Shown here: in pieces, positions 41,201-44,200 of the stretch
Position numbering within the stretch: the first letter of the stretch is position 1
How the letters are laid out: every line of letters starts with the position of its first letter
Source: Escherichia coli
GTDB lineage: Bacteria > Pseudomonadota > Gammaproteobacteria > Enterobacterales > Enterobacteriaceae
Assembly: GCF_036507355.1 (NCBI RefSeq)
Contig: NZ_AP027877.1
Strand: one strand, 5' to 3'
Length of the DNA stretch: 64,000 nt
Position numbers: made by a program

Positions 41201-44200
41201 TGACTTCGTCAGAGAGCGCTACCAGCTCACCAGCCAGTTGCTGTTGGATATGTAAAATTCGCTGCCAGCGTTGTTCGGCATTTTCAGCGTTAATCAGGCT
41301 GGTGGTGGCAATAGCGCCAGCATTTACCAGTGGCGACAGCGGTTTGCCGCCATGCAACTCTAAGGCGATAACTGAGTTAAAGGGCAATCCGGTCGGGTCA
41401 GCGCCAATTTTGTCCTGTACCGCCTGCGGGCCGACATCTTCTAACGCAAGGGCTAACGTACAGACTTTCGAGATGGATTCCAGCGCAAAGCGGTAATCAC
41501 TGTCACCCGCACTATAGACGTTGCCATCGCAGGTCACGATAGCCACTGCCGCCAGTTGACCTGGTACATTCGCCAGAAAGGGAATGTAATCGGCATTTTG
41601 TCCGCCGTTAAGTGAGTGAAATTGGGTGTAAGCCTGATCCACTGCCTGCTGTAATTTGTTTGCATCTAACATCTTTTGTTAACTCCTTTTTATAGATGCG
41701 GGAGGTAATTCCTCACCCCGGTGCCGATTTTCAGGCATCCTGATTTAACTTAGCACCCGCAACTTAACTACAGGAAAACAAAGAGATAAATGTCTAATCC
41801 TGATGCAAATCGAGCCGATTTTTTAATCTTTACGGACTTTTACTCGCCTGGGTTATTAATTTCTTGACCTTCCCCTTGCTGGAAGGTTTAACCTTTATCA
41901 CAGCCAGTCAAAACTGTCTTAAAGGAGTGTTTTATGTCACAAACTATCGACCTGACCCTGGACGGCCTGTCCTGCGGTCACTGCGTTAAACGCGTGAAAG
42001 AAAGTCTCGAACAGCGCCCGGATGTGGAACAAGCGGATGTGTCTATCACTGAAGCGCACGTTACCGGGACTGCCAGTGCAGAACAGCTGATCGAAACCAT
42101 CAAACAAGCGGGTTATGACGCATCTGTAAGCCACCCAAAGGCTAAACCGCTGGCGGAGTCATCAATCCCGTCGGAAGCACTGACAGCGGTTTCTGAGGCG
42201 CTTCCGGCAGCGACCGCCGATGACGATGACAGCCAGCAGTTGCTGCTGAGCGGCATGAGCTGCGCCAGCTGTGTCACCCGCGTACAAAATGCGCTGCAAA
42301 GCGTACCGGGCGTCACTCAGGCACGGGTAAACCTGGCGGAGCGTACTGCGCTGGTGATGGGCAGTGCCTCCCCACAAGATTTAGTGCAGGCGGTGGAAAA
42401 AGCGGGCTACGGTGCGGAAGCGATTGAAGATGACGCGAAACGCCGCGAGCGCCAGCAAGAAACCGCCGTCGCTACGATGAAGCGCTTCCGCTGGCAGGCA
42501 ATTGTTGCACTGGCTGTGGGTATCCCGGTAATGGTCTGGGGGATGATCGGCGATAACATGATGGTCACCGCTGACAACCGCAGCCTGTGGTTGGTTATCG
42601 GCCTGATAACCCTGGCAGTGATGGTTTTCGCCGGCGGCCATTTTTACCGCAGCGCATGGAAAAGCCTGCTGAACGGTGCAGCGACGATGGATACACTGGT
42701 GGCGCTGGGTACTGGCGTGGCGTGGCTCTATTCGATGAGCGTCAACCTGTGGCCGCAGTGGTTCCCGATGGAAGCGCGGCATCTTTACTATGAAGCCAGT
42801 GCGATGATTATCGGTCTGATTAATCTCGGTCATATGCTGGAAGCGCGCGCACGTCAGCGTTCTTCAAAGGCGCTGGAGAAATTACTCGATTTAACTCCGC
42901 CGACGGCGCGCCTGGTTACTGACGAAGGTGAAAAAAGCGTGCCTCTGGCAGAAGTGCAGCCAGGTATGTTGCTGCGCCTGACGACGGGCGACCGCGTGCC
43001 AGTAGATGGCGAGATTACCCAGGGCGAAGCATGGCTGGATGAAGCGATGCTGACGGGCGAACCTATCCCGCAGCAAAAAGGCGAAGGCGATAGCGTCCAT
43101 GCCGGGACAGTGGTACAGGACGGTAGCGTTCTGTTTCGCGCCAGTGCGGTTGGCAGCCATACCACGCTATCAAGGATTATTCGTATGGTGCGCCAGGCCC
43201 AGAGCAGCAAGCCAGAAATCGGTCAGCTGGCGGATAAAATCTCAGCCGTATTTGTGCCGGTAGTAGTGGTGATTGCGCTGATCAGTGCGGCAATCTGGTA
43301 TTTCTTTGGTCCGGCACCGCAGATTGTCTATACCCTGGTGATTGCCACCACGGTGCTGATTATTGCCTGCCCGTGTGCGCTGGGGCTGGCGACGCCGATG
43401 TCGATTATTTCCGGCGTCGGGCGGGCGGCTGAGTTTGGCGTGCTGGTGCGGGACGCCGACGCGCTGCAACGCGCCAGTACACTCGATACCGTCGTGTTCG
43501 ATAAAACCGGGACGCTGACCGAAGGGAAGCCGCAGGTTGTCGCAGTGAAAACATTTGCTGATTTTGACGAAGCGCAGGCGCTGCGTCTGGCGGCGGCACT
43601 GGAACAAGGTTCCAGCCATCCGCTGGCACGGGCGATCCTCGATAAAGCAAGCGATATGCAGCTGCCGCAGGTCAACGGTTTCCGCACATTGCGCGGGCTG
43701 GGCGTGAGCGGTGAAGCTGAAGGTCATGCGTTATTGCTGGGTAATCAGGCGTTGTTAAATGATCAGCAAGTCGATACTAAAGCGATTGAAGCCGATATTT
43801 CAGCTCAGGCATCGCAAGGAGCAACGCCTGTGCTGCTGGCGATTGACGGGAAAGCAGTAGCCCTGCTGGCTGTACGCGATCCATTGCGTAGTGATAGCGT
43901 GGCGGCGCTGCAACGCCTGCATAAAGCGGGATATCGTCTGGTGATGTTGACCGGGGATAACCCAACCACCGCCAATGCGATCGCCAAAGAAGCAGGGATT
44001 GATGAGGTGATCGCCGGGGTGCTGCCGGACGGTAAAGCCGAAGCGATTAAACGCCTGCAAAGTGAAGGACGTCAGGTGGCAATGGTGGGCGACGGCATTA
44101 ACGACGCGCCAGCGCTGGCTCAGGCGGATGTCGGCATTGCGATGGGTGGCGGCAGTGATGTTGCTATTGAAACCGCGGCGATTACCCTGATGCGCCATAG

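Follow-up and report, generated by a model that had tools for sequence, protein, structure and literature searches.

The window analysed here is a 64-kb stretch of Escherichia coli DNA in which copA and its regulatory gene cueR are both contained. Between the two genes are located glsA and ybaT, together with a co-directional array of genes, tolC28-siiEA-hlyB28-hlyD28-cueR, which is closed by cueR. This last gene is found 27.4 kb from the copA operator, immediately downstream of the type I secretion genes, so the position attributed to it by the initial annotation, distal to a secretion operon, was correct. The coordinates of the features and the evidence for each of them are collected in Table 1.

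Table 1. Features of the copA and cueR loci, in window coordinates.
Feature	Coordinates	Strand	Evidence and remarks
cueR, Cu(I)-sensing MerR-family activator, 135 aa	14029-14436	-	NF007590, 308 bits (cut-off 244)
hlyD28, HlyD adaptor	14433-15608	-	TIGR01843, 328 bits (above cut-off), match to last profile position; TGA stop overlaps cueR ATG
hlyD28, last 32 codons	14437-14532	-	sole part of the island kept (frameshifted) as cueR leader in K-12-type strains
hlyB28, LssB-type ABC transporter	15605-17767	-	TIGR03375, 836 bits (cut-off 693)
siiEA giant adhesin (rtxA28/rtxB28), pseudogene here	17771-37649	-	TAG at 29877-29879; 1-bp insertion near 21511
tolC28, TolC-family outer-membrane protein	37752-39107	-	TIGR01844, 416 bits (cut-off 225)
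RstA box TAATTCAAATTACC	39388-39401	-	upstream of tolC28; exact match, unique in window
ybaT intrinsic terminator hairpin	39411-39433	-	9 pairs, then T-rich tail; halved by deletion endpoint in K-12
ybaT (39445-40737) and glsA (40740-41672)	39445-41672	-	divergent from copA; NCBIfam APC-family permease and glutaminase A; RefSeq homologous locus agrees
copA promoter	41864-41894	+	-35 TTGACC 41864-41869, 19-bp spacer 41870-41888, -10 TAACCT 41889-41894; direct sequence reading
CueR operator, 7-7-7 dyad ACCTTCC/CCTTGCT/GGAAGGT	41867-41887		within promoter spacer
copA CDS, Cu(I)-exporting P-type ATPase, 834 aa	41934-44438	+	NCBIfam NF007952, 1748 bits (cut-off 1316)
-1 frameshift heptamer C CCA AAG, codons 68-69	42134-42140	+	frame reading C|CCA|AAG
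TAA stop in -1 frame, ends 70-aa CopA(Z)	42143-42145	+	frame reading
H-type pseudoknot, putative frameshift stimulator	42144-42206	+	S1 42144-52/42184-92; S2 42172-78/42200-06

The copA control region and the CopA(Z) frameshift

Promoters of the MerR type are recognised by an over-long spacer of 19-20 bp between the sigma-70 hexamers, and CueR sites located in 19-bp spacers have been described (PMC1526738). The copA promoter of the window has a spacer of precisely 19 bp, and the arms of the dyad are perfect reverse complements of each other. Its core, CCTTCC-N7-GGAAGG (41868-41886), occurs once in the 64 kb and was never obtained in 100 shuffles. When up to three mismatches were allowed, 3 matches were detected in the window against 1.6 expected, and the copA site was the only one among them that could be considered a real CueR box. 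As a regulator of the MerR type, CueR occupies its dyad with or without metal, that is, in both the apo and the holo forms, and acts allosterically; the Cu(I)-bound protein distorts the DNA and brings the -35 and -10 hexamers into line, which activates copA. At the sigma-70 promoter found here, with its 19-bp spacer, binding of Cu(I) by CueR seated on the dyad would in the same way distort the DNA and lead to copA transcription.

The region was aligned with that of K-12, and only 7 differences were found between positions 41654 and 42314. Two of them lie upstream of the -35 hexamer, 12 and 20 bp away from it, and the other five are synonymous changes in copA codons 25-33. Segments 41853-42007 and 42033-42314 have no difference at all, and every base of the core promoter, operator, 5' UTR, start codon (ATG at 41934), slippery site and pseudoknot is the same as in K-12. 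The PcopA/CueR operator of that strain has the same hexamers, a spacer of equal length and the same 21-bp dyad, and nothing within the element differs. The 351-nt copA cassette is present, with at least 95% identity, in 5422 of the 5426 complete E. coli genomes. The stretch 41864-42140 is the ordinary, core-genome and already characterised copA control region of E. coli.

As regards the frameshift site, a heptamer of the form X XXY YYZ is located in the zero frame just 3' of the first metal-binding domain. The bare CCCAAAG sequence is not rare in the window (5 copies against 7.6 expected), and its significance rests on frame and position, not on rarity. In the -1 frame the reading is CCC AAA GGC TAA, which gives a 70-aa product with the end ...SHPKG*. 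A copA frameshift product of 70 aa is described in PMC5009743, and in the RefSeq entry of K-12 the joined CDS is annotated as 'soluble Cu(+) chaperone'. It was also possible to see, by direct check of complementarity, that the stems S1 and S2 of the pseudoknot are both perfectly paired and interleaved; such a pseudoknot has been described in copA as the stimulator of frameshifting (PMC7558416, PMC6182138). Nested folding alone gave no significant result for this segment (z = -0.49), as is natural for a stimulator of the pseudoknot type. No Rfam family covers the copA element, and the only matches were naRNA4, sroB/ChiX and, in a separate scan of 59000-61100, the DnaX element.

A -1 programmed frameshift in copA that yields CopA(Z) has reportedly been demonstrated by Meydan et al. 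(2017, Mol Cell 65:207) and Drees et al. (2017, Mol Microbiol 106:635), and the heptamer, the GGC-TAA and the 70-aa product are all shared by the window. The pseudoknot sequence and the nascent peptide are also the same as in K-12, the 10 amino-acid differences between the two CopA proteins being all beyond residue 449, and the five synonymous changes are well 5' of the cassette, so that no difference from the known system is left. Following this scheme, some ribosomes would slip by -1 on C CCA AAG, aided by the pseudoknot and by the nascent peptide, and would read GGC and UAA to release the copper chaperone CopA(Z), while the others would continue to the 834-aa pump.

The two elements that the initial annotation had described as intact, the CueR dyad in its long-spacer promoter and the heptamer at codons 68-69, thus proved to be in place and without a single base of difference from K-12, and no observation speaks against their identity. 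CueR itself has one substitution with respect to K-12, D103N, with S77, C112 and C120 kept. Considering that the operator and frameshift cassette is identical to that of K-12 and that the key residues of CueR are kept, this strain is expected to sense copper and to produce CopA(Z) normally. Given that the operator and the frameshift are features of the core genome, little follows from their finding in itself.

O-island 28 between ybaT and cueR

The array that precedes cueR corresponds to O-island 28 (OI-28), characterised in EHEC O157:H7 as tolC28-rtxA28-rtxB28-hlyB28-hlyD28 (PMC12758282). Three secretion components scored above their NCBIfam cut-offs, the array is in the ybaT-cueR position, and an RstA box, as defined in the same work, is present before tolC28. 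OI-28 of O55:H7, annotated in RefSeq as the 'BapA-related adhesin SiiEA' locus, agrees with the window in gene order and in its location between ybaT and cueR, and it also has the RstA box and the overlap of 4 bp between hlyD and cueR. The difference resides in the adhesin gene, which is intact in O55:H7, where it encodes 6925 aa, whereas the copy of the window has a nonsense codon, originated by a CAG-to-TAG change, and a frameshift caused by one extra T. It is split here into three ORFs and is about 900 bp shorter. An intact giant adhesin of the BapA/SiiE type is consequently not encoded, and the locus is OI-28 with its substrate gene as a pseudogene, although errors of assembly might in principle account for the disruptions.

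The neighbourhood of cueR is therefore a known and annotated polymorphism, and the copA elements were known as well. In the published work on OI-28 (PMC12758282) there is no mention of cueR, and our literature search found no link of Z0634 or Z0635 to this gene.

Origin of the K-12 arrangement

Full-length hlyD adjoins cueR in 959 of 5426 complete E. coli genomes, and 4458 of them (82%) have a single, identical junction of the K-12 type. In K-12 the genes glsA(ybaS)-ybaT-cueR, predicted to form an operon (PMC1526738), are the same three as in the window and have the same order and orientation, but without the 24.9 kb of the island. The initial annotation had regarded the context of cueR as changed in the strain under study. 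A rival view is a recent horizontal acquisition of the island by pathogenic lineages, the K-12 arrangement being the ancestral one, as suggested by the term 'acquisition' used in PMC12758282, by the presence of the island in 100% of O157:H7, O145:H28 and O55:H7 and its patchy occurrence elsewhere (PMC12758282), and by the GC content of siiEA, 60.6% against about 53% in the core. The composition of the K-12 spacer contradicts such an acquisition. The 124 bp that separate ybaT from cueR in K-12 are made up of 28 bp of window 39417-39444 and 95 bp of window 14437-14532, which correspond to one half of the ybaT terminator and to the tail of hlyD. Translation of the second part gives VVAVDIRTGKK, then a 1-bp deletion and then 19 further residues of the HlyD tail, and PGAP annotates it as a frameshifted partial pseudogene. 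What K-12 encodes is a broken copy of a C-terminus that is conserved in the family, since this tail is kept in the HlyD homologues of Enterobacter, Cedecea, Rahnella, Acinetobacter and Salmonella arizonae. In no case does cueR follow the homologue, and it was found after hlyD in 0 of 77 loci outside Escherichia. With respect to the terminator, the hairpin of the window folds at -16.6 kcal/mol (z = -5.0), whereas the K-12 version no longer folds.

The distribution of the island in more distant relatives points in the same direction. In E. whittamii hlyB-hlyD-cueR is retained, with 91% of the nucleotides identical, and another diverged Escherichia has decayed fragments of the island at the same locus. 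Lineages of the genus with a divergence of about 9% carry the island or its remnants at the same site, and the island has diverged as much as its flanks. Among the lineages compared, E. whittamii and this other one set the only bounds on when the island arrived.

Taking into account that the K-12 spacer holds the decayed tail of hlyD and half of the ybaT terminator, and that the island is present in diverged Escherichia, the K-12-type strains are the changed ones, the reverse of what had been annotated. On these grounds we rejected the recent acquisition, which we regard as very improbable, and we interpret the K-12 state as a scar left by a deletion of 24.9 kb (window 14533-39416), the arrangement with the island being ancestral in Escherichia. 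The deletion took the island out, halved the ybaT terminator and turned a non-functional hlyD tail of 95 bp into the leader of cueR. A standard copA control region together with a cueR that is the terminal gene of an ancestral OI-28, from which K-12-type strains derive by one 24.9-kb deletion, is the explanation that we favour for the whole locus, with a probability of about 0.9. As OI-28 is usually called an acquisition of pathogens, the interpretation of the K-12-type state as a deletion scar alters the reading of the presence and absence of the island.

Transcription of cueR

A further aspect of this locus is the manner in which cueR is transcribed. The stop codon of hlyD28 and the start codon of cueR share the sequence ATGA, and the gaps of the array are all of 102 bp or less. 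Considering that cueR has no private intergenic region, its promoter must lie in or upstream of the coding sequence of the secretion genes, and we infer that in island-bearing strains the mRNAs carrying cueR begin within these genes or upstream of them. The gene is on the same strand as hlyD28 and is separated from it by neither a gap nor a terminator, as would be expected if both belonged to one operon. The scan of hlyD28 for terminators gave only weak matches, of 5-7 pairs, and its coding strand has no sigma-70 consensus site in which 9 or more of the 12 positions match; in hlyB28 there is one 9/12 site, a number that chance alone would give. Transcription of cueR together with the secretion genes is plausible from its sequence context. 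An RNA structure gating the translation of cueR at the hlyD28/cueR junction was also looked for, and the folding there was no better than that of shuffles (z = 0.24 in the window and 0.40 in K-12).

If cueR were the last cistron of an OI-28 operon controlled by RstA, Ca2+ and RpoS, the dosage of CueR, and with it the regulation by copper, could track the adhesin locus. The 4-bp overlap, the short gaps, the lack of a convincing terminator or consensus promoter on the coding strand of hlyD28 and the consequent location of the cueR promoter all speak for this coupling. The five genes of the island respond jointly to RstA and Ca2+ (PMC12758282), and the 40 nt located 5' of the cueR ATG are invariant in six sequences of diverged Escherichia. 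There are, however, several observations against it. In 82% of E. coli cueR is expressed without the operon, behind the same 95-bp leader. The nonsense codon and the frameshift in the 20-kb adhesin gene should give polarity downstream of PtolC28. In an array of RpoS-dependent genes of EDL933, the island genes Z0608 (55-fold) and Z0609 (20-fold) are listed and cueR is not, which is weak evidence against the link, the supplements having no values for cueR or the distal genes of the island. The search with up to three mismatches gave no CueR box within the island, and therefore there would be no reciprocal control of the island by CueR. Finally, the allosteric action of CueR from its operator, established for the MerR family, makes its activity dependent on Cu(I) and not on the transcription of cueR, because of which transcription linked to secretion would have little effect on copper control and a physiological link is unlikely. 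Dosage coupling to the operon is accordingly judged quite unlikely, and the link between copper regulation and expression of the adhesin locus that the initial annotation had suggested is taken, from the sequence, only as a possibility.

Alternatively, cueR could have a weak constitutive promoter of its own, embedded within the final ~100 bp of hlyD28, which would free its expression from the secretion operon and, in K-12, from glsA-ybaT. It is precisely this segment of 95 bp that was spared by the deletion in 4458 genomes, its proximal ~50 nt are the same in the window and in K-12 although cueR differs between them at 23 of 408 positions (5.6% divergence), and K-12-type strains have a working cueR (PMC9628877). 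The value of this conservation is reduced by the coding constraint on hlyD and by the ribosome-binding region of cueR, which also explain it, and, at that divergence, a stretch of about 49 nt free of differences is only slightly unexpected. The coding strand offers no sigma-70 site of at least 9/12, and the best candidate seen by eye in K-12, TTGAAT-16-TAACAA, is weak and its -35 element is missing in the window. Two facts fit read-through instead: K-12 has lost the ybaT terminator, and acid induces cueR together with ybaST (PMC9628877). Weighing both sides, an embedded promoter seems to us a serious but tentative option, somewhat short of even odds. The literature that we searched, including the RegulonDB paper and papers on CueR, gave no mapped promoter for the gene.

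A broader and rather doubtful proposal is that, in the ~18% of E. coli that have kept OI-28, cueR is expressed through transcripts that cross hlyD28, with a dosage set by RstA, Ca2+ and RpoS, and that the K-12-type deletion, by destroying the ybaT terminator, rewired the gene onto the acid- and copper-inducible glsA-ybaT. If this were true, it would be a natural swap of promoters for a metal sensor, and it might confound the published phenotypes of OI-28 deletions, should the expression of cueR have been disturbed in those mutants.

In both haplotypes cueR is devoid of an upstream region of its own and therefore its transcription would depend on its neighbours, which are hlyD28 where the island is present and glsA-ybaT in K-12-type strains. 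This dependence matters for deletion mutants of OI-28 or ybaST when they are used in experiments with copper or acid.

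copA promoter and frameshift site

The CueR operator and the -1 frameshift heptamer that the initial annotation had described in copA were both found intact, in the position and frame claimed, and the operator had no base differing from K-12. The promoter and the CueR dyad within its spacer were located by reading the sequence (see table). The dyad core, CCTTCC-N7-GGAAGG, was present in a single copy in the 64 kb in a motif scan of the window and in 0/100 shuffles; CueR sites inside 19-bp spacers were already reported (PMC1526738). The heptamer CCCAAAG lies at 42134-42140 in the register C-CCA-AAG, at copA codons 68-69. 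By itself it is not rare in the window (5 copies seen, 7.6 expected), and its meaning comes from reading frame and position. A -1 slip on the copA message gives CCC AAA GGC TAA and a 70-aa protein ending in SHPKG, and the K-12 RefSeq label for the joined copA CDS is "soluble Cu(+) chaperone". On the 3′ side of the slippery site, two interleaved stems of perfect complementarity (42144-42152/42184-42192 and 42172-42178/42200-42206) have the predicted topology of an H-type pseudoknot. The frameshift, its 70-aa product, the slippery site and the pseudoknot and nascent-chain stimulators are in the literature (PMC5009743, PMC7558416, PMC6182138).

Between 41654 and 42314 the sequence departs from that of K-12 MG1655 at 7 positions: two lie 5′ of the -35 hexamer, and five, all synonymous and at third positions, lie in copA codons 25-33. 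None falls in the promoter core, the operator, the 5′ UTR, the start codon or the slippery site, nor in the 170 nt after it. CopA is the same as in K-12 up to residue 449, and the nascent-peptide stimulator is therefore unchanged. Copper sensing and CopA(Z) production are thus predicted to be functional, as had been proposed, from elements identical to those of K-12. The 351-nt copA cassette was found at at least 95% identity in 5422 of 5426 complete E. coli genomes, and at 100% in some O157:H7 strains. The copA control region is ordinary, and everything at 41864-42140 was already known.

Features located in the window
Feature	Position	Strand	Remarks
LysR-type regulator gene	19-945		beyond rhodanese/ATPase gene
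Rhodanese/ATPase gene	1014-2108		within ~700 bp of ybbP; consistent with selU/mnmH
ybbP	2821-5235	-
120-aa hypothetical protein gene	11353-11715	-	2.8-kb module
YadA-anchor protein gene	12081-13349		2.8-kb module
Lipoprotein gene	13403-13825		2.8-kb module
67-aa membrane peptide gene	13822-14025		2.8-kb module
cueR	14029-14436	-
hlyD28	14433-15608	-	HlyD adaptor
hlyB28	15605-17767	-	LssB-type ABC transporter
siiEA	17771-37649	-	giant adhesin, three ORFs
tolC28	37752-39107	-	TolC family
ybaT	39445-40737	-	between glsA and island array
glsA	40740-41672	-	upstream of island array
copA promoter	41864-41869; 41889-41894	+	-35 TTGACC; 19-bp spacer; -10 TAACCT
CueR dyad	41867-41887		ACCTTCC-CCTTGCT-GGAAGGT, in promoter spacer
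copA	41934-44438	+	834 codons; NCBIfam NF007952, 1748 bits (cut-off 1316)
REP/naRNA4 element	44550-44627		just downstream of copA
sRNA ChiX	45925-46008	-	Rfam sroB, 82 bits; between ybaK and ybaP
dnaX gamma/tau frameshift site	59688-59752	-	Rfam RF00382, 96.8 bits; second -1 element, unrelated to that of copA

The O-island 28 array and the ybaT-cueR junction

The window is E. coli chromosome in inverted orientation with respect to K-12. The tolC28-siiEA-hlyB28-hlyD28 array is the O157:H7 element named O-island 28. It encodes a type I secretion/adhesin system that is activated by RstA and Ca2+ and required in early adherence, as recently shown (PMC12758282); the RstA box published there was found at 39401-39388, and that paper mentions neither cueR nor copper. 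It was confirmed that cueR is distal to the secretion genes, being last in the array with a 4-bp overlap in which ATGA is common to the hlyD28 stop and the cueR start. The successive gaps from ybaT through tolC28, siiEA, hlyB28 and hlyD28 to cueR were 337, 102, 3, -4 and -4 bp, and O55:H7 CB9615 (RefSeq) has the identical array, overlap included. The region upstream of tolC28 (39108-39444), which contains the RstA box, has 33% GC against ~53% in the core. Strong AT-richness is typical of promoters silenced by nucleoid proteins.

The context of cueR had been taken as changed in this strain, but the change belongs to K-12, by deletion. The 124-bp ybaT-cueR spacer of K-12 (8870-8993 of its locus) consists of 28 bp matching 39417-39444, one base, and 95 bp matching 14437-14532, the last being the 3′ end of hlyD, a relic of its last 32 codons. 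Translated, the relic reads VVAVDIRTGKK, a 1-bp deletion and 19 further residues, while the HlyD of the window keeps its 32-residue C-terminal end intact; PGAP independently labels the relic a pseudogene ("frameshifted; incomplete; missing N-terminus"). This tail is conserved in homologues from Enterobacter, Cedecea, Lelliottia, Rahnella, Acinetobacter and Salmonella arizonae, in none of which cueR follows hlyD. At its other end the deletion cuts through a strong terminator hairpin 3′ of ybaT (39411-39444 region; -16.6 kcal/mol, z = -5.0 in the window), and the half kept in K-12 no longer folds. The K-12-type junction was contiguous in 4458 of the 5426 genomes and full hlyD adjoined cueR in 959, which indicates that K-12-type strains arose by a single deletion of 14533-39416.

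E. whittamii retains hlyB-hlyD-cueR at about 91% nucleotide identity. In an assembly labelled E. coli SCPM-O-B-8794, of a lineage whose divergence from the window is ~8-9%, the same locus (3340-7523) retains pieces of tolC28, siiEA and hlyB. Its hlyD, in which 2 bp are inserted close to the end, continues to abut cueR, and ybbJ comes immediately after cueR; this is a third state of the locus. With the scar in K-12, and with the island or its remnants kept at one place in both of these, O-island 28 is ancestral in this part of Escherichia. Only two points are modestly new: the K-12 cueR leader read as a deletion scar, and a cueR without a private promoter region.

Transcription of cueR

It had been suggested that copper regulation may be linked to adhesin expression. 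In the window no intergenic region belongs to cueR alone, scanning of the cueR strand within hlyD28 gave neither a convincing terminator nor a consensus promoter, and the 40 nt 5′ of the cueR ATG were invariant in six diverged sequences. By absence of these elements, cueR transcripts would begin within or upstream of the secretion-gene coding sequence, and partial co-transcription with the secretion genes is plausible; no mapped cueR promoter was found in the literature searched. Physiological coupling is nevertheless unlikely, since a functional cueR is expressed behind the same leader, without the island operon, in 82% of strains (PMC9628877 for function). Moreover, siiEA is here a pseudogene with respect to the intact 6925-aa O55:H7 gene, carrying a CAG-to-TAG nonsense change at codon 2591 (29879-29877) and a 1-bp insertion (an extra T) near 21511, both expected to be polar on transcripts from the tolC28 promoter. 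It is also ~900 bp (three repeat units) shorter, and is frameshifted too in the closest complete E. coli genome; the three secretion genes are intact. A motif search revealed no CueR box within the island, and folding of the hlyD28/cueR junction gave no structure suggesting gated cueR translation. CueR is, furthermore, under allosteric control by Cu(I), as established for the MerR family, which also counts against the link. More weakly, the island genes Z0608 and Z0609 are RpoS-dependent in EDL933 (55- and 20-fold) and cueR is not listed. A regulatory link between copper control and the adhesin locus is thus speculative.

Taking into account the loss of the ybaT terminator, glsA-ybaT read-through into cueR is likely in K-12-type strains. 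Such read-through fits the ybaS-ybaT-ybbI operon predicted in older work (PMC1526738), the co-induction of cueR with ybaST by acid and the induction of ybaST by copper (PMC9628877).

cueR haplotypes and flanking DNA

Comparison with five other loci, K-12 included, showed that cueR falls into two deeply separated haplotypes. Alleles from E. coli that carry the island were 1-8 of 408 sites apart and differed from K-12 at 22-23, a distance as large as that of E. whittamii (19-24) and clearly exceeding the 1-2.5% by which flanking core genes diverge. The changes were almost all synonymous, D103N being the sole replacement. A second indel, of 2.8 kb and low GC (43.8%; 11251-14028), lies on the far side of cueR, before ybbJ; K-12 lacks it, and there cueR and ybbJ abut. 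With this module on one side and the island on the other, strain-variable DNA is found at both ends of cueR. Further along, the rhsD element, which in the K-12 map separates ybbP from the genes on the selU/mnmH side, seems absent from 1-2821.
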